DNA of 33,984 nucleotides from an uncultured bacterium (GTDB lineage Bacteria > Verrucomicrobiota > Kiritimatiellia > CAIKKV01 > CAITUY01): NCBI GenBank assembly GCA_903934155.1, contig CAIZMS010000144.1, forward strand, positions 1 through 33,984. The letters are read 5' to 3'. This document shows positions 4,812-22,784 of this stretch, one piece after another. The position numbers and the translations under genes were made by a program. How positions within the stretch are numbered: position 1 is the stretch's first letter; every line of letters begins with the position of its first letter. The notes beneath the pieces are model-generated. The model was not told the origin of the DNA. It was given only the letters and a program-made list of their open reading frames with translations, and did no database searches.

Positions 4812-4886
4812 TCATCGTCGCGAGGGTTTTGGTGCTGCTGGGCGGTTGTGCAACACTGGAGGCACAAGTATGGCGAAAGGTGTGGA

Positions 4887-7800
4887 ATGAAGTCTACTCT
4901 CATGCTCCGGGATTGCACACAACAACGGAGATGCTCCAGTCCTGAATCCCGATCCGTGGCTTGGCGGGTTTCCGGTCTGGTGCGTCGCCGGAAGGGGTTT
5001 ATCGCATGGGGGATGGTCCTGTTGGCGTGGGCCTCCGTGGCCCAGGCGGGGACGCGTGTTCTGGTTTTGGGGAGGCCGGAAGCTTATCAGAGCGCCAGTG
5101 AGGCGGTGTTTCCCCCCTCGGCGGTCGCCTCGAACCTCTCCGCCATCCTGACAGGGGACAGCACGGTGCCCCAGCCTGTCGAGGTGCGGTGTGTGGATAC
5201 GGCCCATACCAACAGCCTGCTGGACGGGTTCAAGGACTATACCCTGATGAGCTGGTTCTACTGGCCCAATACCCGGACCAACACGCTCGCGTTGCTGCGC
5301 GACAAGTGGGATTACGTGGTGATGATGGATGATCCGTATGTCCTGTCGGCGTTCCCGGAATACTGCCTCGAAGGCGTGCTCGCGATCAGCCGGGAAGCGC
5401 GCAGCGCCGGGAGCCAGCCCATCCTGGTGATGCCCTGGTCAAGCACCAACACACCGCTGGCGACCTTTGGCGAGATGGCCTACCGGGTGGGCGACGGCGC
5501 CGGGATCCCCGTCGCGCCGGCCGGTTACGCATGGAACGCCGTGGGTGAGGCGCTGCGGGATGCGGGAACCCGGCCGACGCCCCGGGGGGCTTACGTGACG
5601 GCGGCAACTGTCTACAGCCGCCTGTTCGATCGTAACGCGACCAATTCGACGTTTGTGCCGGACGGGGCCAGTGTGGCGGACCGTGATGCGCTGGCGAATG
5701 CCGCGTTTGCCACGGTCCGGTCGGAGGCCACGAATTCCCACTATAGCGGGGTCTATCGTGCGCCAACGCATTTCGTCACGCCCGCCAACAAGAAACGGTA
5801 CATTGAAGTGGCGGATTTCAACTCCAGCACGGAATCGGGGATTGCGAACGAATGGGGGGCGGTGTTCAATTCGGCGGGCATCCAGTATTACCGCTATACG
5901 TCCGGCTATCAGAGCTTTCCCATCATCGGCCACGTCATCGATTTTTGCCAGTCACGGTTTTCCCAGCGGACCTTTGGCGCCGATTCCCATTATGGCTGGC
6001 TCGCCGACACCAATTATTGGTCCAACCATGCGGCCTTCGACTACATGGATGATAACGGGGGGAAGACCATGGTTTTTGGCATGGACCGGGTCATGTATCC
6101 GCACCCACGGCCCGAACAGGAAACCGGCGCGGCCTCCCTGCCTGCCGCCTATATGGACCAGGGTGGGTATTTCGTGCCCGTGCGCGTCCTGTGGGCCCGC
6201 ATCCGGACGGCCCATCCGGAGTTCTCCTGGCAACCGGATGGCCACCACATGGATGCGCGATTCAACCGGGGCATTGCGGTCATGATGTACACCCTGCTCA
6301 GCGGGCGGTGCCCGGTTGACGACGAGCCGGCCGACAAGAACTCCGACGCCTGGCAATATTGGTTCTGCAGCAAGACGGGGTACGAGATCGCGGCGCAACA
6401 CGGCACCCTCAATGGCCGTATCGCGGGCTTCAAGATCCGCCCGCGTTCGGCGACGGCGACGAGCGTGACCACGGTTTCCAACGAAACCCTCACGGTGCGG
6501 TTCCTCTATGCGCCCACGGCGACGGTGAGCGTGGCGGTTTCGCTCGACAATACCAACGCCGCCATCATGGATCCCGGGAGCCTGGTCTTCACGCCCGCGA
6601 ATTACGCGACGCCCCAGACCGTGTCGCTCCGGGCGACCCCGGGCGCGAGCACGAGCGAGGTGGTCACGCTCAATTTCGATACCCATTCGGCCGATTCTGT
6701 ATTCGATGGATTGAACGACCAATGGGCCTACACGGTCGTCAGGTCGAGCACCCAGGCGCTCTCGTCCGTCTTCCTGCCCGCGCTCAGCGTGACGCTTGCG
6801 GAAGACACCCCTGCGGCTGTCGCGCTCGGGGTGGCGGGCGCGGGGCCCGGCAACACCGTGGTGGTCGGGCCAACCCATGGCGCGTATTCCCTGACCAATT
6901 CCCTCTATACGCCTTCCACCAACTATTATGGTGCGGACAGTTTTGCCTGTTATGTCAACACGGGCGGGGTCCTGACGGTGCGTTCCGTGGCGCTGACGAT
7001 TACCAACAGTGCCGACGGGGTCGTGTTGACGGCTCCCACGAATGGCGCCGCCTATGCCGCCGTGGCGCAAATCCCGCTCAGGGTGGATGGATACTGGGAC
7101 GGGGGACGGGTCGATTATTACGCCGACGGAACCTTGCTTTTGAGCGCGAGCAATTCGCCCTGGTCCGGGACCTGGACGAATCCGGTCGCGGGCAGTTATG
7201 CGGTCAAGGCGGTTGCCTATGACCCCTCCGGCGTGGCCGTGACCTCGGCGGTGGCGAACCTGGCCGTGACGAACGGGGGCGGGGTCTGGTGGACGACGAA
7301 CTCCGGGTCGTGGGGCGAAGGATCCAACTGGCTGGCGAATGTTGTGCCGGGGAGCACCGACCGGGTCCAGTTTGCCGGGCTTCCGATTTCGGGCGTGGTC
7401 ACGGTGCGGCTGGATGGCGCGCGTTCGGCCAACCGGCTGGTGTTTGGCGGCACCCGTTACACTCAGCCGAACGTGCTGATGGGCTCCGATAGCATTGGGA
7501 CACCGGCGCTGGACCCGTCCGGTCCGCAGCCCGGAAGCTGGGTGGTTTCCGACGGGAGCGCCACCCAGAATGTCATGACCTTGACCGGCTCGGGCGCGAC
7601 CATCGAAGTGCGTGATCTGGGTGCTATGCCCAGTCCCGTTGCTCCTGGCCCCGGCGATTATCTGGTCAGGATGAATGCCTCCATCGAGACCTCCGGCAGT
7701 TTGACGAAGGAGGGACCCGGCGCCCTGCGTTTGGCGGGGACAAACCGGATCGACGGGGGGGTGGTCGTTAATTCAGCCCACAGCGGGGTGATGGTGGAGC

Positions 7801-10766
7801 ATACGGGGGCGTTGGGCGCGGGGCCCGTGACCCTGAAGGAGCACACCTGGCTCGGGTGCCCCGACGGCTATGCCGCGCCGGTGCTGATCTCAAATAACGT
7901 GGTATTGGCGGGAACCGGCCTTGCGAACTACCGCATCGGCCCCGGGATGGGAGCCAACCTGACGGTGTCGGGCAGCATCAACGGAACCAATATCGCGGGC
8001 AGCAGCGCGCTATACCTGGGCGGACAGGGACGCGACCTCTGGGTGCTGGGAGAGACGATCCCGACGACCCGCGTCTACAACACGCTCGGAGCGGGCACGT
8101 TCACGCTGGCCGGCGACGTGATGCTCGGCACGCGGACCTTGTATCTGCTCGGCGGCTGGCCCTGTGCGGGCGCCACCACGAACCGGGTGCTGGGCGGCCG
8201 GATCACGGCGGGAAACCTGACCTATAACTATTTCTCCGCGGATGGGTCTTCCATGACGATCATTGGCGGCGATGCGCAGCTGAATCTGTCAGGGTATATG
8301 AATTACTACTTTGTCTGGGCCGCGCCCCTGGTCATCCGGGATACGGCGCAGGTGACGGCGGCCGGGGTGTTGTACGGCTACACGTTGACGATCCGGGACC
8401 AGGCACGGGTCACTTCGGCCGGCATCTATGGGGCGAATAACGACAACAATCCGTCCGTTGCCTTCCTGGGCGGTACCTCGACGGTGAATTACGTCCAGAC
8501 CAGCAAAGTCACCTTTGACGGCGGGGTGCTTGTCGCGCGCGTGGCGAACAACGCCTTCCTTGATATTCCCACGGGTGTCACGGCCTACTCCTTCCTGATC
8601 AACGCGGGTGGCCTGATTCTGGACAGCGCCGGCAGGGATATTGCCATCCCGCGCAATCTGGGGCATGGCGCTGTCACCGTGGACGGCGGACTGGTAAAGT
8701 CCGGCGCCGGTACGCTGACGCTGGGCGGGACCAACACCTACAACGGGCCGACGGTGGTGAAGGGCGGCACGGTGCGGCGGAGCCAGGAGGCTTCCCTTCC
8801 CGCAGGCACGGCGTTGACGGTCGATGGCGGCGGGGTGATTGACCTGGGAGGGTTTCCCCTCAGGGTGGTGTCGTTTAAGGGGAGTGGCATGGTGACCAAC
8901 GGGGAATTGATCATCATGGGTTCCACCACGATCACCAATGGAGGGGCGGTCTTTACCGACAACCTGACGGTCACCAACGGCTTGCAGGCCGCGATGTCGG
9001 CCCCCGGGCCGTTGATGACGGTCGGCGGGACGGCGACCCTGGGCGGAACGCTCGTGTTGAACTTGTCCGGAAGCGCCGTCACGACCAATTTTCTGGTGCT
9101 GGTCCGGGCGGGCGCCATCAGCAACGCGTTTGGTGCCGCGACGTTGCCGTCGGGGTGGGTGCTGGAGTACTCCCCGACGGAAGTCCGCGCGGTTGTTGCC
9201 GCCTCCTATCTGGAATGTCCGTCGGCGGTATCGGCAACCGACGGGAACTTTACGGATCAGGTGGTGGTGGCCTGGTCGCCGGTTCCCCGGGCCGAGTTGT
9301 ATGACCTCTGGCGCCGGCTGGAATCCCCGGAGTATGCGGGAGCCGAATGGATCGGCACGGTGACGGTGACGAATTTTGCCGATACGAATGTGGAGCCGAA
9401 CCGCAGCCATACATACTGGGTCCGCGCGATGAATAGCATGGCGACCAGCGCGGTGAGTGCCGCCGACACCGGGTTTGCTTTCCTGCCCAATACCACCAAT
9501 GCGGTGCCCCTTCGGGAAACGTTCGAGGGATATCGGACCAACGCCCTGCTCGTGGGGCGCAACGGCTGGTATGCCTTGGACCCAACGGCGCTGGCGATCT
9601 CGGAGGCGGCCGAGTTGATCACGTCGCTGGGCACCTATGCCGGCCATCTTCCGGTGCGGACGAACCATGCACGCGTGGCGGTGCTTTCGGATGTGATCAC
9701 CAATCGCATCACCGGGCCGGCGGGGACCAATACGTGGCTGGACATGATGCTGCGAACGGAGAGCCTTGAAGATTCTTCCGCGTGGGATTCCCGCGAGGTC
9801 CAGTGCCGGTTTGCCCTGGAGACCAATGGTCATTTGAAAGCCTATTGCTATTACCTCACGGGAATGACCAATGGCGGGGTCGAATTCGTCCATAGCCCTG
9901 TTGCGCCCTTTTCATGGGCCCGGTTATCTGTCCAATTGGATTACCGGGGGGCGCATCCCGGTTGTCCCGGGCGTGGGTGGTTCCAATGCTATCTCAACGG
10001 CCGGTTACTGACGAATGCTGTGGCGCTGACCCGCCCGGATGCCGGCGGGGTCGCGGGTGGGAGTTGGCTGCCGATGGCGGTCTCGAACGCCGCGCGGGTC
10101 AATTCCTTGATCTGGCAGGGGAGTTCGGTGCTCGACGATCTGGTGGTGGATACGGCCATTCCATACGGGCTTGCCTGGACGGTTCATGCGAGCGCCGGGC
10201 CGAATGGCGGCGTGTCGCCGGCGGGTGACACGCTGGTCTGGAACGGCTCGGGCCTGACGGTGACGATCCATCCGAACCCGTATTACTCCGTCCAGACCCT
10301 CCTGGTGGACGGTCTCGCTCAGGGGATGGCCACCCAGTATGTGTTTGTGGCGGTCACGAACGACCACACCCTGGAGGCGGCATTTGCGGCGAACCTCGCC
10401 ACCAACGGGACGCCCCAGTGGTGGCTGGCCAGTCATGGGCACAGCAATAACTGGGATCTGGCGGCGCTTGGGGATGATGACCTTGATAAGATGCTGAACT
10501 GGGAGGAATATGTGGCGGGGACCGATCCCGAGAATGGCGCGTCCGTTCTGGTCGTCAGCAATCTCCTGTCCCTGGCGGGGGGGCGGGTGGTGTTGGACTG
10601 GCCGAGTGTGGAGGCCCATTACTATGACGTCGAGCGCTCGACCAATATCGGCGCCGGGTTTGTCCCCGTGGCGAGCAATCTTTCGGCGGTTTCGCCGGTA
10701 AACAGCTATACAGACACGGTAAGTTCCGTATCTGTGATGTATTACAGGATTCGGGTTCGTCAATGA
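4887..10766 (+). CDS. Giant secreted multidomain surface protein (~1,960 aa) with Ig-like domains, autotransporter-associated beta-strand (PATR-type) repeats, and FN3-like, LamG-like and InlB-B-repeat-like modules
   Basis: One uninterrupted ORF (track 4848-10766). The start is uncertain: ATG 4887 (MKSTLM...) or in-frame GTG 4980, which would give the cleaner signal peptide (M)RRRKGFIAWGMVLLAWASVAQA|G. WWTTNSGSWGEGSNWLANVVPGSTDRVQF (about 7288-7370) is a typical entry motif for beta-helical repeat regions. LVKSGAGTLTLGGTNTYNGPTVVKGGTV (about 8691-8775) matches the autotransporter-associated beta-strand repeat. MLNWEEYVAGTDPENG lies at 10491-10538. There is no C-terminal beta-barrel or PEP-CTERM. 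Confidence 0.85.
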   Translation: MKSTLMLRDCTQQRRCSSPESRSVAWRVSGLVRRRKGFIAWGMVLLAWASVAQAGTRVLVLGRPEAYQSASEAVFPPSAVASNLSAILTGDSTVPQPVEVRCVDTAHTNSLLDGFKDYTLMSWFYWPNTRTNTLALLRDKWDYVVMMDDPYVLSAFPEYCLEGVLAISREARSAGSQPILVMPWSSTNTPLATFGEMAYRVGDGAGIPVAPAGYAWNAVGEALRDAGTRPTPRGAYVTAATVYSRLFDRNATNSTFVPDGASVADRDALANAAFATVRSEATNSHYSGVYRAPTHFVTPANKKRYIEVADFNSSTESGIANEWGAVFNSAGIQYYRYTSGYQSFPIIGHVIDFCQSRFSQRTFGADSHYGWLADTNYWSNHAAFDYMDDNGGKTMVFGMDRVMYPHPRPEQETGAASLPAAYMDQGGYFVPVRVLWARIRTAHPEFSWQPDGHHMDARFNRGIAVMMYTLLSGRCPVDDEPADKNSDAWQYWFCSKTGYEIAAQHGTLNGRIAGFKIRPRSATATSVTTVSNETLTVRFLYAPTATVSVAVSLDNTNAAIMDPGSLVFTPANYATPQTVSLRATPGASTSEVVTLNFDTHSADSVFDGLNDQWAYTVVRSSTQALSSVFLPALSVTLAEDTPAAVALGVAGAGPGNTVVVGPTHGAYSLTNSLYTPSTNYYGADSFACYVNTGGVLTVRSVALTITNSADGVVLTAPTNGAAYAAVAQIPLRVDGYWDGGRVDYYADGTLLLSASNSPWSGTWTNPVAGSYAVKAVAYDPSGVAVTSAVANLAVTNGGGVWWTTNSGSWGEGSNWLANVVPGSTDRVQFAGLPISGVVTVRLDGARSANRLVFGGTRYTQPNVLMGSDSIGTPALDPSGPQPGSWVVSDGSATQNVMTLTGSGATIEVRDLGAMPSPVAPGPGDYLVRMNASIETSGSLTKEGPGALRLAGTNRIDGGVVVNSAHSGVMVEHTGALGAGPVTLKEHTWLGCPDGYAAPVLISNNVVLAGTGLANYRIGPGMGANLTVSGSINGTNIAGSSALYLGGQGRDLWVLGETIPTTRVYNTLGAGTFTLAGDVMLGTRTLYLLGGWPCAGATTNRVLGGRITAGNLTYNYFSADGSSMTIIGGDAQLNLSGYMNYYFVWAAPLVIRDTAQVTAAGVLYGYTLTIRDQARVTSAGIYGANNDNNPSVAFLGGTSTVNYVQTSKVTFDGGVLVARVANNAFLDIPTGVTAYSFLINAGGLILDSAGRDIAIPRNLGHGAVTVDGGLVKSGAGTLTLGGTNTYNGPTVVKGGTVRRSQEASLPAGTALTVDGGGVIDLGGFPLRVVSFKGSGMVTNGELIIMGSTTITNGGAVFTDNLTVTNGLQAAMSAPGPLMTVGGTATLGGTLVLNLSGSAVTTNFLVLVRAGAISNAFGAATLPSGWVLEYSPTEVRAVVAASYLECPSAVSATDGNFTDQVVVAWSPVPRAELYDLWRRLESPEYAGAEWIGTVTVTNFADTNVEPNRSHTYWVRAMNSMATSAVSAADTGFAFLPNTTNAVPLRETFEGYRTNALLVGRNGWYALDPTALAISEAAELITSLGTYAGHLPVRTNHARVAVLSDVITNRITGPAGTNTWLDMMLRTESLEDSSAWDSREVQCRFALETNGHLKAYCYYLTGMTNGGVEFVHSPVAPFSWARLSVQLDYRGAHPGCPGRGWFQCYLNGRLLTNAVALTRPDAGGVAGGSWLPMAVSNAARVNSLIWQGSSVLDDLVVDTAIPYGLAWTVHASAGPNGGVSPAGDTLVWNGSGLTVTIHPNPYYSVQTLLVDGLAQGMATQYVFVAVTNDHTLEAAFAANLATNGTPQWWLASHGHSNNWDLAALGDDDLDKMLNWEEYVAGTDPENGASVLVVSNLLSLAGGRVVLDWPSVEAHYYDVERSTNIGAGFVPVASNLSAVSPVNSYTDTVSSVSVMYYRIRVRQ

Positions 10767-11265: not shown

Positions 11266-11432
11266 TTCAGCTTCACCCGCCCCGCCTCTGTGCCCGTCAT
11301 AGTGGCACCATGACAGGTTGCACGACGTATGTTTCCTTGGAACAGGAAGGAGGGGTCGAACCACAGTAGCAAGTGAATTGGCAGTCGTTCTGGATGTGTG
11401 TTACTAATATTAATTCTGACAGGAGAGATCTC

Positions 11433-12203
11433 ATGAGAATAGACAGTGGCGAATTGAGGCGGAAGATGTTGATTGGCCTGGCCCTGATGTCGGCCGGAGC
11501 GCGACTCGGAGCGGCCGAGGGTGAAAAATCGGCCGATCCCTTTGTGAAGGGGAACAAGCCGGCGGTGATGGCTTCCCAAGTCACGGGGGGCGCCAATGAG
11601 GGGAAACAAGGGGTTGAGCGGTTGAGGGAAATTTACATCCCGACCATTGAATTCAGGGAAGCCCGCATAGAGGATGCGATCGAGTTTCTCAGGAACGTGT
11701 TGCTGAAGAATGATCCGAAAAAAGTTGGCGTAAACATTGTTTTGAACTTGCAGGGTGCGAAGCCCCCGGCCATCACGTTCTCGGCAAGAAATATCAGCCT
11801 GTTTCATGCTTTCAAGATCATCACTTCGGTGGCCGGGCTGAAGTATGAAGTCGAAGACAACATTGTGATCATCAGTAGGAATGAGCCGGTCAGCCAGGAT
11901 GAGGCGGTGGCACGGGAGAAGCCGGTCGGGATCGAAAGGCTGGAGAAGATCATCATTCCGGAACTGGCGCTGAGGCAAGCCAACATTGAGGATGTGGTCG
12001 AGTTCCTCAGAAAAGTATCTGTTGAGAATGATCCGCAAAAGGTCGGTGTTACGATTGTTTTGAACTTGCAGGGCGAAAAGCCTCCGCTTATTACGTTCTC
12101 GGCGAAGCAGATTAGCTTGTTCGATGCATTCAGGATCATCACCAAGGTGGCCGGGCTGAAATATCAGCTCGACGATAACATTGTGACAATCAGCAGGGAA
12201 TAG
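11433..12203 (+). CDS. Periplasmic protein made of two tandem secretin-N0/STN-like modules
   Basis: ATG 11433 follows AGGAGA (11421-11426). Signal peptide MRIDSGELRRKMLIGLALMSAGARLGAAEG. Two 90-aa modules (nt 11610-11879 and 11928-12197) share 61/90 identical residues by my hand alignment. Their pattern (IPxIEFRxAxIEDxIEFLR...VGVNIVLNLQG..PPITFSA.NISLF.AF.IIT.VAGLKY...DNIV.ISR) resembles secretin/TonB short N-terminal (STN) or secretin N0 domains. The family call comes from memory of the pattern only. Confidence 0.75.
   Translation: MRIDSGELRRKMLIGLALMSAGARLGAAEGEKSADPFVKGNKPAVMASQVTGGANEGKQGVERLREIYIPTIEFREARIEDAIEFLRNVLLKNDPKKVGVNIVLNLQGAKPPAITFSARNISLFHAFKIITSVAGLKYEVEDNIVIISRNEPVSQDEAVAREKPVGIERLEKIIIPELALRQANIEDVVEFLRKVSVENDPQKVGVTIVLNLQGEKPPLITFSAKQISLFDAFRIITKVAGLKYQLDDNIVTISRE
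11610..12197 (+). repeat. Intragenic tandem duplication (two ~270-nt modules, period 318 nt)
   Basis: GVERLREIYIPTIEFREARIEDAIEFLRNVLLKNDPKKVGVNIVLNLQGAKPPAITFSARNISLFHAFKIITSVAGLKYEVEDNIVIISR versus GIERLEKIIIPELALRQANIEDVVEFLRKVSVENDPQKVGVTIVLNLQGEKPPLITFSAKQISLFDAFRIITKVAGLKYQLDDNIVTISR. Confidence 0.9.
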
Positions 12204-14676: not shown

Positions 14677-17295
14677 ATGAAGATCATGACATGGATGCTT
14701 GCGGCCGTTTGGTGTTTCACCACAACGGTGGCAGTTGCTGCGCAACTAGACAAACCCTTGATCACCATTGACAAGCAGGCCGTCAAGATTGAGGTGATCC
14801 GCTCAGGCGCAATTCTCGAAATCCGGCCCGTTTCGGACACGATCGTCCGGGTGACCTGTCGCCCCAAGGGTGCGCCGGAACGAAAGCCAAGCCTGATTGT
14901 GAACAATCCTTTGGATCCCTTTACTGGTTGGGACTGTTCCGAGTCGGCTGACGTGCTCGAAATCCGCACCGCCAAGCTGATCGTCGAGTACTCGAAGGGC
15001 GATGACGCCATTCGTTTCCTCCGCAAGGACACGGGTGAACTCATTCTGGGGGAAAAGCCGGGCGACGGGCGGTCCTTCGTCGATACCGCCGTCGAGCAGA
15101 CGTTCCTGTGCGGAGCCGACGAGGTGCTCGGCGGGTTGGGTCAGCAGACGGACGGCGCGATGAATTTCCGCGGGCGATTCGCGCATCTCTGCCAGTACAA
15201 CATTATCAAGGCCATTCCGGTCCTGGTCTCCAGCAGGGGTTACGGTATTTTATGGGACAACTGTTCGCTGACGGAAGTCAACCGCCGGAAGAGTCCGGTG
15301 CCGCTAGAGTTCCATCCCTATACCAAGACATGGGGCGGCACCTTCACGCCGCGGGAGACCGGCCAGCATGTCTTCGTGCTCGAGAAACTGAACCGCAACA
15401 TTCCCATGACCACGGAAAAAGTGAGCGTCCGGGTTGACGGGAAGGAGATTATCGCGCGGGAATGTCCCTGGCATCCCAACTATTACTCGGGAACCGTGGT
15501 GTTGGAAAAGGACAGGCCCTGCAAAATCATGGCGACAGGATCCATCCGCTTGTTTTACCAGCCGCCCTCCCTGACGGAGACGACCTCGATCTGGTCGGAA
15601 GTGGGCGAGGGCATCGACTATTATTTCATGTACGGCCCGCAACTCGACGGCGTGATCGCGGGATACCGGAACCTGACCGGGGCCGCCCCCCTGTTCCCCA
15701 AGTGGGCCTACGGGTTCTGGCAGAGCCGGGAGCGCTATACCACGGGCGAGGAGCTTGTTGCCATCGTGGATGAATATCGCAAGCGCAACCATCCGCTCGA
15801 CGTCATCGTGCAGGATTGGCAGTACTGGCGGGACTATGGCTGGAATGCCCTGAAGGTGCATCCGGACTACGCCCGCGACATGAAGGCCATCGTCGGGCGG
15901 CTGCATGACCGGCATGCGCGCGTGCTGTTTTCTGTCTGGCCCAACTTCGGGTCGGAACCCGCGAACGAGGCCCATGCGGAGTTCAAGGAGAAGGGGTACC
16001 TGCTCGACGATTCGGTGCTGGGCGACTACATCGGCAACTACCAGGCGGCCCTCCAGGGCATGCAGAAGAACTTTTCGGATTTCTTCAAGCCCGGGGTGGG
16101 GGATGCCTTCTGGAAGCGGATGAAGCAGGGGCTTTTCGACGCCGGGATTGACGGCTGGTGGCTGGACGCCAACGAGCCCAATCTCGCCAGTATCCAGGGG
16201 GTGTTCCACCTCTACCAGACCGCCGCAGGCCCCGCCGCCGCGGTTCTCAATGCCTATCCCCTGGTGCAGACCCGGAGCATCTACGAAAACCAGCGCAAGG
16301 AAACCTCGGCGAAACGGGTGTGCCTGCTTTCGCGAAGCGGCTTTGCCGGGCAGCAGCGCTACGCCGCGGCGGTGTGGAGCGGGGACACCTATGGCTCGTG
16401 GGCGGTGCTCAAGTGGAATATTGCCGGCGGCATCAATTACTGCCTCTCGGGTTTGCCGTACTGGGGCACCGACATCGGCGGGTTCTTTGGAGGGGACCCC
16501 GACAGCCCCGCCTTTCGCGAGTTGTACGCCCGCTGGTTTCAATATGGGGCGTTTTGTCCCATTTTTCGAGCCCATGGAACCGGCAGCAAGCGGGAGGTCT
16601 GGCAGTTCGGTCCCGAATCCGAGGCGATCCAGCACAAATATCTGGTCCTTCGCTATCGCCTGATGCCTTACATCTACAGCGTGGCATGGAAAGTCACCCG
16701 GGATCACTCTACGATGCTGCGGGGGCTCGTGCTGGACTTCCCCCGCGATGCCAAGGCCTGTACCGTGGCCGACCAGTTCATGTTCGGGCCGGCGTTGCTG
16801 GTCTGTCCCGTTACGGAACCCGGTGCCCGCGAAAGACCCGTGTACCTGCCGGCGGGCACGGGCTGGTATGATTTCTGGACCGGGGCTTATCACCAGGGCG
16901 GGACGACCCTCACCGCCAAGGCCCCGCTCGACCAAATTCCGCTTTTCGTTAGGGCCGGATCCATCGTGGTGATGGGGCCGGAGATGCAGTATACCTCCGA
17001 AAAGCAGGCGGATCCCCTCGAGGTCAGGGTCTATGCCGGCCAGGATGCCGCCTTCACGGTGTATGAAGATGAGGGCGACAACTACGGGTATGAGCAAGGG
17101 ATATACGCGGAGATTCCGATCCAGTGGCGCCAAGGCGACAAGACGTTGACCCTCGGGGGGCGGACAGGCCGCTTCCCCGGAATGCTGGAGCGGCGCACGA
17201 TCAAGGTGAAATGGATTGGCGTGCCCGGCAAGGATAGCGGGATGTGTGTGGATGTCGCCTATACCGGCGAGGGCGTTTGTGTGAAGGGGGAATAA
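14677..17295 (+). CDS. Glycoside hydrolase family 31-like enzyme (alpha-glucosidase/alpha-xylosidase type), secreted
   Basis: ATG 14677 gives the signal peptide MKIMTWMLAAVWCFTTTVAVAAQ. GH31-type motifs are KWAYGFWQSRERY, PLDVIVQDWQYW, GIDGWWLDANEP (nucleophile region, about 16155-16178), AAAVWSGDTYGSW and FCPIFRAHG. Confidence 0.88.
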   Translation: MKIMTWMLAAVWCFTTTVAVAAQLDKPLITIDKQAVKIEVIRSGAILEIRPVSDTIVRVTCRPKGAPERKPSLIVNNPLDPFTGWDCSESADVLEIRTAKLIVEYSKGDDAIRFLRKDTGELILGEKPGDGRSFVDTAVEQTFLCGADEVLGGLGQQTDGAMNFRGRFAHLCQYNIIKAIPVLVSSRGYGILWDNCSLTEVNRRKSPVPLEFHPYTKTWGGTFTPRETGQHVFVLEKLNRNIPMTTEKVSVRVDGKEIIARECPWHPNYYSGTVVLEKDRPCKIMATGSIRLFYQPPSLTETTSIWSEVGEGIDYYFMYGPQLDGVIAGYRNLTGAAPLFPKWAYGFWQSRERYTTGEELVAIVDEYRKRNHPLDVIVQDWQYWRDYGWNALKVHPDYARDMKAIVGRLHDRHARVLFSVWPNFGSEPANEAHAEFKEKGYLLDDSVLGDYIGNYQAALQGMQKNFSDFFKPGVGDAFWKRMKQGLFDAGIDGWWLDANEPNLASIQGVFHLYQTAAGPAAAVLNAYPLVQTRSIYENQRKETSAKRVCLLSRSGFAGQQRYAAAVWSGDTYGSWAVLKWNIAGGINYCLSGLPYWGTDIGGFFGGDPDSPAFRELYARWFQYGAFCPIFRAHGTGSKREVWQFGPESEAIQHKYLVLRYRLMPYIYSVAWKVTRDHSTMLRGLVLDFPRDAKACTVADQFMFGPALLVCPVTEPGARERPVYLPAGTGWYDFWTGAYHQGGTTLTAKAPLDQIPLFVRAGSIVVMGPEMQYTSEKQADPLEVRVYAGQDAAFTVYEDEGDNYGYEQGIYAEIPIQWRQGDKTLTLGGRTGRFPGMLERRTIKVKWIGVPGKDSGMCVDVAYTGEGVCVKGE

Positions 17296-17327
17296 ATCCA
17301 TGAGTCAGGATGAGGAGGCAGAACTGT

Positions 17328-18620
17328 ATGAAGTTTGAATGTCCGAAATGTAGCCAACGTCTTTCGGTTGCGGCGACCGCCGCAGGGCTCATGGTCCGGT
17401 GTCCGTCATGCGATAACCGGGTCAAGGTGCCGCTGGCGTCAAAGGGGGATCGGCGCGCCTGGAAGGAAACAGACCCGACGAATCCCAATCCGTTCCTCAG
17501 TCTGGGGATCACGCTGGTTGTGCTTCTGCTGTGGTTCCTGCTTCTGTTGCCGTTCGTCCCTCCGGCAGGCACGCCGATTTCCTCATACAGCACGATGCAG
17601 TTCCTGTCATCGTTGTTCTACAAGCATTTCCTGGTCAGTTTCATCAACACGATGTTCTTCGTGTGGGCCATGTCGATCATCTTCCTCAAGCACCTGAAGA
17701 TCCGGCACCAGAAGGCCGCGATGATGCTCGACGTCCTGCCGCCGCAGCTCGGCAAGGAGATCGACGGCACGAACGTGGGGGCCTTTATCGACCATGTCTA
17801 CTCGTTGCCCCACAAGTTGCGCGACAGCCTGATGGTCAACCGGATCCGGAAGGCGTTGGAGCTGTTCGAGATTCGGCAGAACGTGGCCGAGGTGCGGGAG
17901 ATGATGGCGAGCCAATCAGAGATCGATAGCGGTCGCATCAGCGGCAGTTTCACCCTGTTGCGCGCCTTTCTGTGGGGGATCCCGCTGCTGGGATTTATCG
18001 GGACGGTCATCGGCTTGTCGCATGCCATCGGCGGCATGAGCTTCGGCAACGTTGAAGATGTCAGCAAGATCGTGGGATCGATCAACAATGTGACTAGCGG
18101 CCTGGGGACGGCCTTCGACGCCACCCTGCTGGGCCTCGTGCTGGCCCTGATCCTGAACTTTCCGCTCAACGCGCTGGCCAAACAGGAGGATGACAACCTG
18201 CAGACGATTGACGCCTTCTGCAACGAGGTGCTGCTGCCACGCCTCAAGGATACGACGTCGGCGCTGACGATCGATTCGAGCGCCGTGGCCAACGCGCTGG
18301 CGCTTGCCATTGCCGGATCGCAGGAGAAATTCATTGTGCAGCTCAACCAACTCGCCCAGCAGATGGGAGGCTATGCCGCGGAGATGGAGAAGCGCATGGC
18401 CACATTCCAGGAGACTGTGACCGAGGAGATTGTGTCCCGGAACGCCGAAATGCGCGAGCAGAATCAGTTGGCGTTAAATGGTTCGCTGGAGCAGGTGTCC
18501 AGGTACATCGGCGGGTTGGAGGCGGGCATTGGAGGCCTCAACAAGGTGCTCAAGGAGCTGGGCGAGCGGCAGGTGGTGGTCCAGGCACCCCCGCGGCGAC
18601 ACTGGTTCTGGCGTTCCTGA
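17328..18620 (+). CDS. MotA/TolQ/ExbB-family ion-channel (stator A-type) protein with an N-terminal CxxC...CxxC zinc ribbon and a ~150-aa C-terminal coiled-coil tail
   Basis: ATG 17328 follows GAGGAGG (17312-17318). The zinc ribbon is MKFECPKCSQRLSV...VRCPSCDNRVKVP (MJ0042-like). Four TM helices have MotA-like topology. The channel signature is LLRAFLWGIPLLGFIGTVIGL ... GLGTAFDATLLGLVLALILNFPLN. The tail is rich in heptad-like Q/E/A/L sequence (QEKFIVQLNQLAQQMGGYAAEMEKRMATFQETVTEEIV...). Confidence 0.85.
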   Translation: MKFECPKCSQRLSVAATAAGLMVRCPSCDNRVKVPLASKGDRRAWKETDPTNPNPFLSLGITLVVLLLWFLLLLPFVPPAGTPISSYSTMQFLSSLFYKHFLVSFINTMFFVWAMSIIFLKHLKIRHQKAAMMLDVLPPQLGKEIDGTNVGAFIDHVYSLPHKLRDSLMVNRIRKALELFEIRQNVAEVREMMASQSEIDSGRISGSFTLLRAFLWGIPLLGFIGTVIGLSHAIGGMSFGNVEDVSKIVGSINNVTSGLGTAFDATLLGLVLALILNFPLNALAKQEDDNLQTIDAFCNEVLLPRLKDTTSALTIDSSAVANALALAIAGSQEKFIVQLNQLAQQMGGYAAEMEKRMATFQETVTEEIVSRNAEMREQNQLALNGSLEQVSRYIGGLEAGIGGLNKVLKELGERQVVVQAPPRRHWFWRS

Positions 18621-18662
18621 AGGCGGTCAGGTCCGGACGGTTGAACCCGAAACACAGCACCC

Positions 18663-19514
18663 ATGGCCAAAAAACGACAAGGCAAACATGACGAGGTGAT
18701 GCTCATCCCGTTTTTGGACATCCTCTGCTCGCTGATCGGGGTTCTGATTTTGATTGTCGTGGTCATGAGCGTTTCCCAGATGCAGCGGGTCGATGGGCGT
18801 TCCAAGGAAGAGGTGGCCCGGGCGCAGCGGTATCAGACCCTGCTGCAACAGCTGAAGGACGAGGAGAAAGCGGCGCTGGAACGGCAGGCGAAGGTCGCGG
18901 AATTGGAGCGCAAGCGCAACTCCGAGCAACGTCTGCGGATGGAACTGCAGGAGAAGCAGCGGAAACTGGCTGAGATGCGCCAGCAGCTGCAGCGGTCAGC
19001 GGACACCGCCCAGGCGGACAAGCTCAAGACCCTGGAGCTCCGCAAGCGGATCGAGTCCCGCGCCCAGGAGAGTCTGGCGTTGGCCCAGTCGCTTAAATTC
19101 ACGCAGGCCGAAATCCTGGCGCTCCGGAAGTTGATCGACGAGCGGCGGAAACTGCCGGAGATCAAGCCGAAGGTCCAGGTCATGCGGTCCACCGGCAGCG
19201 GCACGGTCGGGAACCAGCGCCTGTTTTTTGTCGAGGTGAACGGGATCGCCATCAAGGTCCACCAGGAGAAGGGGAAGCCCATCAACGTCCCCATCGATAA
19301 CGTGAAAGGGGACAAGGACTTCAACGCGTTCCTTGAAAAGGTCAAGAATACGGGCAACGCCTCCCTGTTGTTCCTGGTCCGGAAGGGGGGCGGCGTCACA
19401 TACCTGCGCGCGGCAGGCTGGGCCGAACAGCAGTATCAACTGAACACCGGAAAAATCCCCATACCTGGCGAGGGGCCTCTCGACCTGAGTCTTTTTGCCG
19501 GAGAGAGGTACTGA
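18663..19514 (+). CDS. ExbD/TolR-like single-pass membrane protein with a ~125-aa coiled-coil spacer (stator B-type, paralog 1)
   Basis: The N-terminus MAKKRQGKHDEVMLIPFLDILCSLIGVLILIVVVMS has a basic head and then a TM helix with Asp19 (GAC 18717-18719), as in ExbD/TolR. Residues ~45-170 (nt ~18795-19172) are highly charged and heptad-like (ALERQAKVAELERKRNSEQRLRMELQEKQRKLAEMRQQLQ...). The C-terminal ~110 aa look like an alpha/beta domain (LLFLVRKGGGVTYLRAAGWAEQQ). No clear SD precedes the start, so the start is less certain. Confidence 0.75.
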   Translation: MAKKRQGKHDEVMLIPFLDILCSLIGVLILIVVVMSVSQMQRVDGRSKEEVARAQRYQTLLQQLKDEEKAALERQAKVAELERKRNSEQRLRMELQEKQRKLAEMRQQLQRSADTAQADKLKTLELRKRIESRAQESLALAQSLKFTQAEILALRKLIDERRKLPEIKPKVQVMRSTGSGTVGNQRLFFVEVNGIAIKVHQEKGKPINVPIDNVKGDKDFNAFLEKVKNTGNASLLFLVRKGGGVTYLRAAGWAEQQYQLNTGKIPIPGEGPLDLSLFAGERY

Positions 19515-19528
19515 GCGGATAACGCCCC

Positions 19529-20602
19529 ATGAGCAAGAAACGGCATGCCGAGGAACAGGAGTTGCCCTTCGTGGCGCTGATGGACACGATGACCAACGTG
19601 GTCGGCGTGCTCGTCATCGTGATGGTCATGATCGGGATCACTCTGGCCCGGGCTGCCAGCAAGGTGCTGTCGTCATTGCCTCCCGCCACCGAGGCCCAGA
19701 TCGTGGAGGTCATGTCGCGGCTCGAACGGCTGCGCGCCGAGCAGGCGCCCCTCCAGGCGAAACTGGCGGCCCCGGCCGACGTCCGGACCGATCCGAAGGC
19801 GATGGAGCGGGTCGACCAGGAACTCGCCGATCTTGAACGGCAGATGAAAAACCGGGGCCTCAAGCCCCAGGACGATGCCGAACTCATCCGCGACCTGGCC
19901 CGGAAGGACGAGGAACTCGTGAAACTCAAAGCGGACGCGTCGAAAATCACGGAGGAGCGGAATAATCTCAAGGTCCAGTTGGATCAGACACCCATACCGC
20001 TTACTCCGCCCGCCAAGGTCGTGCGCATTCCGGCCAGCCGGCCGATCCCCAAGAATGCCAGGATTGAGCAGGTCGTGGTCACGAAGGACGGCGCCTACTG
20101 GGTTGACGAGGAGGCCCTGACCCGTCAGTTCCTAGGGGAGTTCAGCCTGGCCGGGAGCCGCGAGGCGATCTTCAGTCAGGTGAAGCGCGGCAACAAGCGG
20201 GTCACGATTTATGATGCGGTCAAACTCAAGAACTATTTTGAGAAACGAAAGCTCAAAACGCGCGGGTTCGATGTGACCATGGGCTTTGAAGAGTGGTCCC
20301 GCACCTGGCCGGTGTTGACGTTGCGCGCCTCCGGCGCGCCTGTGGCCGACCTGGGGGGGATTCTGTGGCGGATCAAGCATAAGCCGAACGCGGTCGTGAT
20401 GTTCCGCGTCACCGGCGATGGGTACGACCACTATCTGGATGCGCGGGAGGTGTGTGACAAGCTGGGCATTCCCGCCGGGTGGGAGTACGCCTTCGCGCCC
20501 GAGGCCAAGTGTTTGATCAATGAAATCGAGACGAACCGGCCCGTGCCTGCGGCGAAAGACAAGTCCGACGAAATCAAGCCGCCCGCGGCTAAAATCGACT
20601 GA
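19529..20602 (+). CDS. ExbD/TolR-like single-pass membrane protein with a ~100-aa coiled-coil spacer and a larger C-terminal domain (stator B-type, paralog 2)
   Basis: The N-terminus MSKKRHAEEQELPFVALMDTMTNVVGVLVIVMVMIG has the same layout and again Asp19 (GAC 19583-19585). The charged helical segment spans ~residues 48-152 (nt ~19670-19984). The C-terminal ~200 aa include AVVMFRVTGDGYDHYLDAREVCDKLGIPAGWE, reminiscent of the ExbD periplasmic domain. The tail is Lys/Pro-rich. Confidence 0.78.
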   Translation: MSKKRHAEEQELPFVALMDTMTNVVGVLVIVMVMIGITLARAASKVLSSLPPATEAQIVEVMSRLERLRAEQAPLQAKLAAPADVRTDPKAMERVDQELADLERQMKNRGLKPQDDAELIRDLARKDEELVKLKADASKITEERNNLKVQLDQTPIPLTPPAKVVRIPASRPIPKNARIEQVVVTKDGAYWVDEEALTRQFLGEFSLAGSREAIFSQVKRGNKRVTIYDAVKLKNYFEKRKLKTRGFDVTMGFEEWSRTWPVLTLRASGAPVADLGGILWRIKHKPNAVVMFRVTGDGYDHYLDAREVCDKLGIPAGWEYAFAPEAKCLINEIETNRPVPAAKDKSDEIKPPAAKID

Positions 20603-20621
20603 CGAGGAGAGGTTGGTCAAA

Positions 20622-22784
20622 ATGAATCTTATCAGCGTGTTCAAGTGTGCTCTCCTGACCGGACTGCTGGTTCCGGCGGGATGTCAGAACGAAAACGGGA
20701 GGGGTGTCCCAAAGGGGGACGAAGCGGTTTGGCAAGGTAACGCGGGCGGGATGTTTTCGCGACAGGACATCATCGTCAAAACCGAGGCGGGCAAGACCTT
20801 TCATTTCCCCGTCAAGATCGTCGGCAACAGCATTACCAGCGAGCTGGGCCCTTTCGGCCTCTATACCGAGGAACTCGTTGTCAAAGACAACACGACCACC
20901 TTGGGGAAAGTGTCCTTGAAGATTGCTGGCGACGAGGGGTTCATCGTGCAGTGCCCGTTTGCCATGCCTAAACCCCGCGGCAAGCCCTATTTTATGATCC
21001 CGGGCTTCCTGTACGGCTCCAATAACCTGAAAGGGTCCGACGGGAAACAGCCGAAATTCGACTATGGCGGGAAAGTTTCCTATCCCAACAGTTCCCTGTG
21101 GTACATCCGGGCCGACCGCAGTACTCACCCGGGCGTCATCACGGTGGTCAACAACCGGGTGTCGATGGTCGGGATCGGGCATCGCATGATCGGCCATGAG
21201 CAGGAGCCTGCCGATGTGTGGTCGCCCCGCTATGTGTTCAATGGGGTGATGCTCGACAGTTCGGATCCTGCTGAGGATCGGGTCGGGTTTCAGTTGGGGT
21301 ACGAAAATGCGCCCGGCCGCTATTCCTGGACTTGGAACGATTCCCGGATTCCCCGCGAAAACGCCTATCGGTTCGGCTGGATCAGGAACGCCAAGGGCAA
21401 GACGCTGACCACGCAGACCTTCTATTTCACGGATCGCGCCTCGTCGGTGAAGGCGTATGGAAAGGCGCTCGAAGCCTATTATCACGCCTTCCACCAGCCC
21501 CCGTTGAAACGCTCCCAACGGCTTGAAGCGCTCGAGAAGATAGGAACCTTTTCAGCCACGGAAGGCTACAACCAGGATCACAAGTTCTTCTTCCTGTACG
21601 ACGGGCCGGGCGGCAACATGGTGGGGGACATCGCCTGGACCGGCGGCATGCAGGTCGCCTATCCGTTGCTGGCCGCCGGGATGAGGGTCAACAACCCCTT
21701 GTTCATCGCCAGGGCCACGGACTTTATTGATAACTTGAGCACCCAGGTGATGAATCCGAAGGCGGGCCTCCTGAACGAGGAATTCCGGGCCGAAAAGGGG
21801 GGCGCGGGGGCCTCGACGGGTTCAGGCTCCGTACGGGGGAAATGGAACGTCACGGGATGGTGGGGAATCGGTGTGAACGCAAACTGTTTTGACATGGGCG
21901 ATCACCCGCTGCACAGCGCTTACCTCAACGGCCAGGCAGCGTATTATCTTCTCAAAGCCTATGAGCGTAACGGATGTAAGAAGGAACGCTGGCTGAAAAC
22001 GGCGCAAACCGTCCTGGACACGGTTCTCAAGAGCCAGAATACGGCAGGGGCTTACGGCGTGTTCTTCGATCCCGAAACCGGCAAAGCGGTGGACTACGAT
22101 GGGTTCCAGAGCTGCTGGTTCCTCCCCGGAATGGCGCTACTGGCCAGGCTCACCCAGGCTCCGCAATACCGCGAAAGCGCCACGAAGGCCGCCCGCTACT
22201 ACGATTCGCTCTATGCCACGGGCGAACTGTTCAATACGCCGATGGATACCCATAAGGCGGTTGACCAGGAAGGCAACCTTTCGTTCATTGTGGCCACGGC
22301 GGAACTTCACAAGCTGACCCATGACCGGGTATACCTGGATATGGCCCGCGATGCGCTCGACTGGGAGTTCTCCTGGAAATTCTGTTACAACAAGGCCTAT
22401 TCGCACGACCCGCTGCGCCGCTTGAACTGGTCGACCTGTGGCGGTTCGATCACCAGTACCCACAATTGCACCATTCATCAGATGGGAACCCTGGTGGCGG
22501 GCGATATTCATTACCTCTACACGCAAGTGAAGGACCCCTACATCGCCTCCCGCCTCAAGGATACCTGCGTGTGGGGGCTGGGAACCTACAACCGTGTTGA
22601 CAACGATTTCGGCTTTGGCAAGGTCGGCCATGCCACTGAGCAATTCACCTATACCGATGGCCTGGTGCTCGCCAAGCGGTCATTCTGGGACGGCGGTGTC
22701 TGGGAAGTCAACTTGACGTGGGCCTCCGCCTGTGTCTTGAATTGCGTCGCCGATGATATCCCTGATGAGTTTTTCGGGGAGTAA
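20622..22784 (+). CDS. Lipoprotein of unknown family (720 aa; N-terminal beta-rich region and a helical C-terminal half, possibly an alpha/alpha-toroid-type carbohydrate-active enzyme)
   Basis: ATG 20622 follows GAGGAGAGG (20604-20612). The lipobox-like signal is MNLISVFKCALLTGLLVPAG|C. The C-terminal half has helix-repeat character with aromatic/acidic motifs (HSAYLNGQAAYYLLKAYE, FLPGMALLARL, YLDMARDALDWEFSW). I recognise no diagnostic family motif. Confidence 0.7.
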   Translation: MNLISVFKCALLTGLLVPAGCQNENGRGVPKGDEAVWQGNAGGMFSRQDIIVKTEAGKTFHFPVKIVGNSITSELGPFGLYTEELVVKDNTTTLGKVSLKIAGDEGFIVQCPFAMPKPRGKPYFMIPGFLYGSNNLKGSDGKQPKFDYGGKVSYPNSSLWYIRADRSTHPGVITVVNNRVSMVGIGHRMIGHEQEPADVWSPRYVFNGVMLDSSDPAEDRVGFQLGYENAPGRYSWTWNDSRIPRENAYRFGWIRNAKGKTLTTQTFYFTDRASSVKAYGKALEAYYHAFHQPPLKRSQRLEALEKIGTFSATEGYNQDHKFFFLYDGPGGNMVGDIAWTGGMQVAYPLLAAGMRVNNPLFIARATDFIDNLSTQVMNPKAGLLNEEFRAEKGGAGASTGSGSVRGKWNVTGWWGIGVNANCFDMGDHPLHSAYLNGQAAYYLLKAYERNGCKKERWLKTAQTVLDTVLKSQNTAGAYGVFFDPETGKAVDYDGFQSCWFLPGMALLARLTQAPQYRESATKAARYYDSLYATGELFNTPMDTHKAVDQEGNLSFIVATAELHKLTHDRVYLDMARDALDWEFSWKFCYNKAYSHDPLRRLNWSTCGGSITSTHNCTIHQMGTLVAGDIHYLYTQVKDPYIASRLKDTCVWGLGTYNRVDNDFGFGKVGHATEQFTYTDGLVLAKRSFWDGGVWEVNLTWASACVLNCVADDIPDEFFGE

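Follow-up and report, generated by a model that had tools for sequence, protein, structure and literature searches.

The 33,984-nucleotide stretch analysed here, referred to below as the window, is contig CAIZMS010000144.1 of an uncultured Kiritimatiellia bacterium (Verrucomicrobiota; assembly GCA_903934155.1). On its + strand it carries a cassette of three closely packed open reading frames (ORFs), which we call A (17310-18620, 436 aa), B1 (18663-19514, 283 aa) and B2 (19529-20602, 357 aa), with gaps of 42 nt between A and B1 and 14 nt between B1 and B2. An initial annotation of positions 18663-20602, made from the sequence alone, had described two paralogous ExbD/TolR-like subunits with built-in coiled-coil spacers that might themselves replace TonB or TolA. 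Both ORFs lie on the + strand where it placed them; what it observed is confirmed, and its interpretation, largely reasonable, is partly supported by the results reported here. A scan of 16900-21000 for promoters and terminators gave nothing exceeding shuffled expectation.

The first gene of the cassette encodes a channel protein of the MotA/ExbB/TolQ family. Residues 179-298 of A (17844..18203) match Pfam PF01618 (MotA_ExbB) at 46.5 bits, well over the cut-off of 22.9, and correspond to the TolQ/ExbB core with its two pore-lining helices. In an alignment with E. coli ExbB and TolQ, the second core helix keeps P225, G228, G231-T232-V233, and G235, and the third keeps V261, G264, A268, T272, and L276. 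The pore-lining motif PxxGxxGTVxG is thus present along with the second pore threonine in the last transmembrane (TM) helix, which means that both pore threonines (T232 and T272) are retained.

Outside this core, A begins with a CxxC...CxxC zinc ribbon (residues 7-36; 17328..17417; MKFECPKCSQ...VRCPSCDN) that matches Zn_ribbon_4 below the cut-off (E 5.6e-5) and is not universal, being absent from the aligned homologue of the Planctomycete Rhodopirellula. An extra TM helix without counterpart in ExbB or TolQ follows the ribbon. Beyond the last TM helix lies a heptad-rich C-terminal tail of about 130 residues (296-425; 18195..18584), presumably cytoplasmic, whose heptad score stands at z = 4.7 relative to shuffles and whose motifs (GLNxVLxELG...WF) are common to Verrucomicrobial and Planctomycete A homologues. 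At several metagenome loci (L113, L114, L118, L119, L125, L129, and L147) the ORF 5' of B1 is 886-951 aa when called from the first start, about twice the usual length; this may reflect a large N-terminal extension or an ORF call that overruns the true start.

The three genes recur together. A pattern scan using one genome per species returned 143 relatives, and the best 80 of these loci all come from Verrucomicrobiota (Verrucomicrobiaceae, Akkermansiaceae, and Chthoniobacteraceae/Spartobacteria). When genome loci, a contig look-up, and the window are counted together (n = 86), A, B1, and B2 occur on one strand and in the same order in 84, and the remaining two are cut by a contig end; A lies directly 5' of B1 in the same 84 of 86, and B2 always comes after B1. 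The order is also kept in complete metagenome loci and in Planctomycete and other contigs, where the context consists of the bare three-gene cassette. Named sources of the cassette are Verrucomicrobiota or Planctomycetota without exception.

The B1 and B2 subunits

Database searches recovered 281 clusters of B1 relatives and 491 of B2 relatives, in both cases with identities down to about 32%, and the two genes are therefore real and conserved. Nearly all of these relatives are annotated as hypothetical or bear spurious names typical of coiled-coil proteins (Skp, prefoldin, PilO, FtsB, seryl-tRNA synthetase). As initially proposed, the two proteins of the window share an N-terminal design of M-x-KKR followed by a TM helix with an aspartate at position 19: B1 starts MAKKRQGKHDEVMLIPFLD19ILCSLIGVL and B2 starts MSKKRHAEEQELPFVALMD19TMTNVVGVL, and codon 19 is GAC in each. 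The B1 helix (LIPFLD19ILCSLIGVLILIVVVMS) spans 18702..18770, with the Asp19 codon at 18717-18719, and the B2 helix (PFVALMD19TMTNVVGVLVIVMVMIGITLA) spans 19565..19648, with the Asp19 codon at 19583-19585. Among 121 close-family sequences of each subunit, aligned with MAFFT, Asp19 is 100% conserved; its neighbours are 97-100% conserved in B1, A16-V27 is nearly invariant in B2, and the TM helix is the best-conserved segment of each protein.

Aligned with each other by hhalign, the B1 and B2 family profiles match with a probability of 99.2% (E 3.2e-19, 229 columns); the match takes in TM helix and spacer as well as the beginning and the end of the C-terminal domains. At the level of profiles this makes B1 and B2 true paralogues, as the initial annotation held, and both adjoin a TolQ/ExbB-type gene.

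The stretch that follows the TM helix differs between the two subunits. In B1 it covers residues 37-164 (128 aa; 18771..19154), consists of 50% E/K/R/Q, and contains one glycine and no proline. At the level of the family, hydrophobicity has a periodicity of 3.5 residues with a power of 1.24, compared to 0.11 in shuffled alignments (0 of 1000 column shuffles reach it), and the signal is coherent across all 128 residues; a 3.6-residue periodicity is not significant. This is the sequence signature of a continuous left-handed coiled coil, which would be about 19 nm long if straight. The initial estimate for B1, 125 helical residues plus a domain of about 110, holds up well against this spacer and the compact domain at residues 186-278 of the AlphaFold2 model.

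The corresponding estimate for B2, about 100 helical residues plus a domain of about 200, has to be revised. In the AlphaFold2 model (90 sequences, mean predicted local distance difference test (pLDDT) score 85), the spacer is not a continuous helix but a series of three (residues 55-80, 89-108, and 116-153; 19691..19987) that total 84 residues and are interrupted at prolines, which occur at positions 74, 82, 89, and 113. Values of pLDDT in the spacer are 75-95 and drop to 56 at residues 81-90. Each helix has 3.5-residue periodicity, and coherence over the whole stretch is weak. A segmented spacer of this kind is shorter and probably more flexible than initially assumed, so that the description as coiled-coil spacers stands for B1, with its coherent heptads, and needs qualification for B2.

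Spacer length is conserved far better than spacer sequence in both subunits. Measured from residue 19, the first strand of the B1 head lies at a median distance of 162 residues, with an interquartile range of 162-162 in cassettes with Asp at B1 position 19 (Asp-type) and 157-162 in those with Ser (Ser-type; see below). From Asp19 to the B2 linker the median is 131 residues (interquartile range 131-132). The B1 spacer of the window is, by alignment, seven residues longer than the family median, which is exactly one heptad.

The C-terminal domain, or head, of B1 (residues 186-278; 19218..19496) is compact and has a TolR/ExbD-like order of strands and helices. An AlphaFold2 model of residues 166-283, built from an alignment of 32 sequences, has a mean pLDDT of 78.6, with a core of about 90, and the element order E-E-E-H-E-H-E. 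Many B1 orthologues in Verrucomicrobiaceae-type genomes also carry a Pro/Ala-rich C-terminal tail that recalls the linker of TonB or TolA; the B1 of the window is without it.

In B2, the spacer is followed by a Pro-rich linker of 24 residues, TPIPLTPPAKVVRIPASRPIPKNA (residues 154-177; 19988..20059), which has no secondary structure in the AlphaFold2 model and in which P155, P168, and P174 are invariant. The alpha/beta domain comes next (residues 178-329, 152 aa; 20060..20515), modelled at a pLDDT of 90-97; both of its ends align with the B1 head by hhalign, and an insertion of about 70 residues separates them. A Lys/Pro-rich tail of 28 residues (20516..20602), modelled with lower pLDDT, closes the protein with ...P352-x-x-x-L/I-D357-COOH, where D357 is invariant and P352 nearly so. 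In Prosthecobacter and other Verrucomicrobiaceae-type genomes (for example L024, L048, and L053), B2 reaches about 512-518 aa through a head insertion of about 140 residues; relatives P0213, P0231, P0237, and P0238 are further examples, as are many loci within L018-L085.

How B1 and B2 relate to the ExbD/TolR family is less clear-cut than the initial annotation implied. Two traits of that family are present, namely a single N-terminal TM helix with a buried aspartate behind a basic N-terminus, and a position immediately downstream of an exbB/tolQ-type gene. A third, the short linker that keeps the whole protein at about 140 aa (E. coli ExbD has 141 aa and TolR 142), is absent, the spacers being 128 (B1) and about 100 (B2) residues long. 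Against Pfam PF02472 (ExbD), B1 scores 10.5 bits with a cut-off of 25.4 (E 0.64), and B2 has no match. The model was matched in 4 of 26 B1 relatives, at E 0.066 or weaker; in 25 B2 relatives it fell outside the 25 families matched most often, and 10 Ser-type relatives had no ExbD match. More broadly, when B1, B2, 51 close relatives, and the 10 Ser-type relatives were scanned with Pfam, NCBIfam, and PADLOC, the results were coiled-coil noise and sub-threshold matches to B-subunit models. The MotB and ZorB1 matches (E 0.004-0.01 or weaker) and the sub-threshold ExbD match all fall on the N-terminal region that includes the TM helix. Neither an OmpA-like peptidoglycan-binding domain (Pfam and NCBIfam scans of B1, B2, and relatives) nor a vWA domain (Pfam scans and Foldseek matches of B1 and B2) was detected.

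Comparisons with known structures point weakly toward TolR for one of the heads. When full-length B profiles were searched against PDB sequences, coiled-coil proteins dominated the results. With a profile limited to the 46 N-terminal residues there were seven matches, three of them TolR with its Asp23 opposite Asp19, at a non-significant E of about 1. For the B1 head, the top Foldseek match in the PDB is E. coli TolR (5BY4; probability 0.99, E 0.012, template-modelling scores 0.52/0.58), and hhalign places the head profile on E. coli TolR in a consistent register (E 0.029) and finds nothing for E. coli ExbD. For B2, Foldseek gave no significant PDB match (best E 0.04), with TolR at rank 36 (E 0.38); the best matches of the full-length model, integrase cores with a template-modelling score of about 0.12, were rejected as chance. 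An exhaustive HMMER search of 1.84 billion representative proteins with the B1 head profile found 398 clusters. The best 150, which were listed, all have E values of 1.8e-13 or better; nearly all of them either have about 230-340 aa, with the head C-terminal, or are fragments of smaller size. Had the profile been able to reach the canonical ExbD/TolR families, which are very large, many more matches would be expected. It is a small and closed family, and its profiles do not appear to connect to canonical ExbD/TolR. Several weak lines of evidence, all of them twilight-zone matches, converge on descent from a TolR/ExbD-type protein, and membership of the ExbD/TolR family proper is not established.

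A quite different reading is that B1 and B2 are bitopic scaffolds like PilN/PilO or GspL/GspM that happen to stand beside a TolQ-like gene and have no part in ion coupling. The gross architecture (TM helix, coiled coil, and alpha/beta domain) and the heterodimer habit are alike, B1 has a weak GspM match (E 0.002, below the cut-off), and one B2 relative is named PilO. No PilO or GspM structure, however, is among the top 50 Foldseek matches of the B1 head, where TolR ranks first; the invariant Asp is buried in an otherwise hydrophobic helix and covaries between the two subunits as described below; and the B genes strictly adjoin a MotA/ExbB gene, with no pilus or secretion genes beside them. We consider this reading so improbable that we reject it on the buried Asp, the covariation, the gene context, and the Foldseek result.

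Faint matches to HpsJ, a cyanobacterial family, were also seen on the B1 TM helix and coil (NCBIfam NF038305, E 6e-5, 23 bits, cut-off 60) and, as precomputed Pfam PF28006 matches, on some B1 relatives. Since the match spans just the TM helix and the coil, we treated it as compositional, although HpsJ may share the TM-plus-coiled-coil design; a literature search on HpsJ returned nothing relevant.

Covariation of membrane carboxylates

The initial annotation had made conservation of Asp19 a check on its reading. The residue is invariant in the clade of the window, but most B1 orthologues in the wider family have serine instead: among the full-length representatives listed for the B1 head profile, 91 have Ser at position 19 and 15 have Asp. 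Ser-type B1 proteins carry the motif SLFPFLSIL, and their B2 partners the motif NLDSLMD, with aspartates at both positions 15 and 19. Across 152 distinct pairs the association has no exception: 83 combine B1 Asp19 with B2 Val15/Asp19 and 69 combine B1 Ser19 with B2 Asp15/Asp19, in a comparison of loci L088-L170 with L001-L085. The covarying codons in the window are 18717-18719 in B1, and 19571-19573 and 19583-19585 in B2.

Ser-type proteins occur in Planctomycetota and some Verrucomicrobiota, with named sources that include Rhodopirellula sp., Gimesia sp., Chthoniobacteraceae, and other Verrucomicrobiota, and the 80 metagenome loci fetched with them again have the arrangement A-B1-B2. They are the commoner type and are inferred to be ancestral on a midpoint-rooted tree of A. 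A neighbour-joining tree of the A core implies at least two switches between Asp and Ser, with nine Ser-type tips inside the Asp-type clade. Since the switches are few, the covariation is suggestive rather than statistical.

Ser-type cassettes have no membrane carboxylate in B1 and two in B2. The complex would thus keep two carboxylates in either version, and the ion-coupling reading survives the loss of Asp19 from B1. The pattern suggestively fits two helices that lie side by side in one channel and need two carboxylates between them, and covariation of positions in B1 and B2 without exception points to a B1:B2 heterodimer.

The same observations bear on another arrangement, in which one type of A ring would serve two motors, A5:B1-B1 and A5:B2-B2, each with its own head and task. 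The structurally characterised axles MotB, ExbD, TolR, ZorB, and GldM are all homodimers (PMC9389320), and the B1 and B2 heads differ in size, as do the spacers in length and continuity. A working B1 homodimer is nevertheless hard to reconcile with Ser-type cassettes, in which B1 has no membrane carboxylate and B2 has two; in every complete locus the genes occur together and in strict order; and one natural fusion bears both heads. We therefore give two separate motors a minor, though not negligible, chance.

The fusion, P0258 (620 aa), came from the representative library and joins a B1 C-terminal part (profile positions 130-273) to a B2 C-terminal part (115-357). Its B1-type coil end and head occupy residues 236-379 and its B2-type coil end, linker, and head residues 373-616. 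The N-terminus is different, with several hydrophobic segments and no PFLD-type motif. P0258 is possibly a natural B1-B2 (Rosetta-stone) fusion, or else an artefact of assembly or gene calling.

A putative long-stalked motor

We think it fairly probable that A, B1, and B2 form one inner-membrane complex driven by the ion-motive force, of the same kind as MotAB, ExbBD, and TolQR (5:2 motors), and that its axle is probably a B1:B2 heterodimer with long stalks. From family membership and conserved motifs, A would form the pentameric, ion-conducting outer ring. B1 and B2 would make up the inner axle, each contributing one TM helix, with Asp19 as its buried carboxylate, behind a short basic segment in the cytoplasm; covariation, strict co-occurrence, and the single A gene suggest that the two Asp helices enter the ring as a heterodimer. 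The 5:2 stoichiometry is inferred from the homology of A and from features of the B helices.

The topology suggested by the basic N-termini, and by analogy with ExbD, TolR, and MotB, would have the stalks project into the periplasm as a rod of fixed length (about 19 nm for B1 if straight) that keeps the heads well away from the inner membrane, on the peptidoglycan or outer-membrane side of the wide periplasm of the Planctomycetota-Verrucomicrobiota-Chlamydiota (PVC) bacteria. The heads, which would descend from a TolR/ExbD-type domain, could have as their target either peptidoglycan, to which TolR-type domains are able to bind, or a component of the outer membrane, and the conserved B2 C-terminus (...P-x-x-x-L-D) could join in this contact. 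There they might anchor the motor, or pull or turn the target directly, which is the job of TonB/TolA or GldM elsewhere. The data show that the genes are real and syntenic, that the B subunits are paralogues, that Asp19, the A motifs, and the stalk lengths are conserved, and that the B1 stalk has coiled-coil character; the heterodimer, the periplasmic reach, the independence of TonB/TolA, and the biological role are what we infer.

Several results weigh against this reading. The curated ExbD/TolR, MotB, and ZorB models all stay far under their cut-offs for B1 and B2, the fold match of the B1 head to TolR is weak (E 0.012, template-modelling score about 0.55), that of B2 is lacking, and the 398 clusters found with the B1 head profile are few. 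The D/S covariation reflects a small number of evolutionary events. Because the B2 spacer is broken by prolines, a continuous two-stranded B1:B2 rod is not guaranteed, and the B2 spacer helices could fold back on themselves. The cytoplasmic tail of A hints at an output on the cytoplasmic side instead. Finally, a TonB/TolA-like protein encoded elsewhere could dock on A; TonB has been reported in Verrucomicrobia generally (PMC12204202), and a partner encoded elsewhere is possible on that account.

The last of these points can be stated as a full alternative, in which a classical TonB/TolA-type or other transducer is encoded elsewhere in the genome and the B stalks merely anchor the stator to distant peptidoglycan in the manner of MotB or TolR. 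The resemblance of the B1 head to TolR, whose periplasmic domain reportedly binds peptidoglycan when opened (the study that gave 5BY4), would suit such an anchor. Moreover, tonB is often found without co-occurring exbBD, and Verrucomicrobia are among the bacteria in which TonB has been detected (PMC12204202). On the other side, stalk lengths are conserved in both subunits as they would be in a ruler. The extra N-terminal TM helix of A, too, sits beside the ExbB/TolQ-equivalent helix, which we take, from Ton and Tol motor structures, to be where TolA or TonB would dock.

The gene neighbourhood also offers no candidate for such a partner. As initially noted, a TonB or TolA gene is lacking in cis, and this holds for the cassette, the 34-kb window, and the flanks of about 83 related loci. 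None of TonB, TolA, TolB, or a Pal/OmpA domain is found among the genes of the window. A fourth conserved gene (TonB/TolA, Pal, TolB, TPR, or effector) does not accompany the cassette either: clusters of flanking ORFs reach at most 15 of the roughly 83 genomic loci, those that recur, among them nusB, ribH, and ffh, are housekeeping genes specific to particular clades, and metagenome and contig loci likewise show no conserved candidate partner. We judge a transducer encoded elsewhere to be unlikely.

Around the cassette, the window contains genes for carbohydrate degradation (GH97, GH31, GH28, and a BNR protein), a two-component system, and a sodium:solute symporter. A 754-aa ORF lies 3' of B2 (20520-22784, + strand) and, as listed, overlaps the B2 end by 83 nt; the protein probably begins instead with a lipoprotein-like signal peptide (MNLISVFKCALLTGLLVPAGC) right after the B2 stop. 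With sub-threshold GH76/GH88-type matches, it may encode an unclassified glycoside hydrolase. Farther upstream, 4848-10766 (+) encodes a protein of 1972 aa that contains a PATR repeat as well as a bacterial Ig domain, and giant PATR proteins of similar kind also flank the cassette in locus L002. A FecR_C/STN-domain protein (11373-12203, +) adjoins the pair of histidine kinase and response regulator. The PATR and FecR/STN genes look like typical Verrucomicrobial surface and signalling genes with no relation to the cassette.

A further reading is a Zorya-like sensor or defence module, in which B1 and B2 would be anchored in the wall and the A tails, by rotating, would relay an envelope perturbation into the cytoplasm. 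With five such tails a cytoplasmic bundle could arise, which hints at cytoplasmic output or regulation. Outside its own family, A matches ZorA models best, along with one structure of 696 aa that has a MotA/TolQ/ExbB domain, and these weak matches reach into the tail (PADLOC ZorA2, E 8.6e-10; PDB 8vvn_C, E 0.003, the best PDB sequence match); the tail is strongly heptad-like, and B1 and B2 have weak ZorB1 matches. Yet the best NCBIfam ZorA score, 26.9 bits, is far below its cut-off of 100, as are ZorA scores generally (cut-offs of at least 100), and the tail has just about 130 residues. The cassette has no ZorC/D/E-type effector or other conserved neighbour, the gene on its 3' side is glycoside-hydrolase-like, and its flanks hold housekeeping and carbohydrate-use genes; similarity tracks taxonomy, as expected of vertically inherited core genes. 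A Zorya-like function is in our view highly improbable.

Returning to the heterodimeric motor, the cassette looks like a new variant within the 5:2 motor superfamily, an uncharacterised branch confined to PVC bacteria whose axle is unusual in being heteromeric and long-stalked; our literature search, which included the superfamily surveys PMC12505986 and PMC12204202, found no description of the cassette or the family. A stronger version can be proposed tentatively: an undescribed, PVC-wide, ion-driven envelope motor with an obligate TolR-derived heterodimer as its axle, whose coiled-coil stalks would act as fixed-length ruler and shaft across the periplasm, so that it would need no TonB/TolA-type transducer. 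Replacement of TonB/TolA by the B stalks is a hypothesis, and their role as a ruler for the wide PVC periplasm a speculation.

If this is true, the Asp/Asp and Ser/Asp-Asp versions would amount to a natural experiment on the number and placement of proton-carrying sites in 5:2 motors, and would bear on whether both axle carboxylates are needed. A cassette conserved in Verrucomicrobiota and Planctomycetota with a built-in stalk of fixed length would be a new answer to how force crosses the periplasm. The envelope architecture of PVC bacteria, with an enlarged and irregular periplasm, has long been debated, and to our knowledge Tol-Pal is poorly documented in them. In practical terms, a consistent name could be given to two families that each comprise several hundred proteins (281 and 491 clusters).

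Comparison with known motor systems

The cassette shares several features with TolQ-TolR and ExbB-ExbD. A belongs to MotA_ExbB and has the ExbB/TolQ pore motifs, and the B genes follow the A gene. The B subunits have a single TM helix with the N-terminus inside and a buried Asp; the PFLD helix resembles PLLD of TolR and PFID of ExbD, and the B1 head has the TolR fold order, with TolR as its best PDB match. In contrast to these systems, B1 and B2 stay below the thresholds of the ExbD/TolR models; in place of the one B gene there are two paralogues, both obligate; TM helix and head are set apart by about 100-128 residues of spacer; and the B2 head is enlarged. The A subunit has in addition a zinc ribbon, a further TM helix, and a tail of 130 residues, and no tolA/tonB, tolB, or pal lies near the cassette.

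For the heteromeric axle, a precedent exists in AglR-AglQ-AglS of Myxococcus gliding, where one TolQ-like A protein likewise goes with two different TolR-like B proteins. Coiled-coil spacers are absent from AglQ and AglS, which are short and otherwise ordinary members of the TolR-like type and which act together with other Glt/Agl envelope proteins. ZorA-ZorB shares with the cassette an A subunit with a helical cytoplasmic tail after the last TM helix, and there are the weak ZorA and ZorB profile matches. Unlike in Zorya, however, the A tail is shorter by several-fold, the scans of B1 and B2 detected no OmpA-type domain, scores are far below the cut-offs, and neither ZorC/D/E effectors nor a defence-island context is present.

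Pairs of Asp-bearing transpore helix-vWA proteins have been found beside a lone tolQ-like gene in Proteobacteria and Verrucomicrobia; their helices were proposed to enter the pentamer, and the proteins to act as their own force transducer (PMC12204202, Mol Biol Evol 2025). The cassette is also close to them in concept and likewise combines a lone tolQ-like gene with an adjoining heterologous pair of Asp helices and no recognisable tolR/exbD, but its heads are TolR-like or novel alpha/beta domains rather than vWA domains, and its linker is a coiled coil of conserved length.

In GldL-GldM and PorL-PorM, which serve type IX secretion and gliding, the axle itself spans the periplasm as a dimeric shaft with no TonB-like adaptor; that of GldM is 18 nm long (PMC9389320). 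The sequences are unrelated, and the GldM shaft is built of four globular domains rather than a coiled coil, is a homodimer, and occurs in Bacteroidota rather than in PVC bacteria. Among the systems considered, TolQR/ExbBD is thus the closest to the cassette in sequence, and GldLM the closest in concept.

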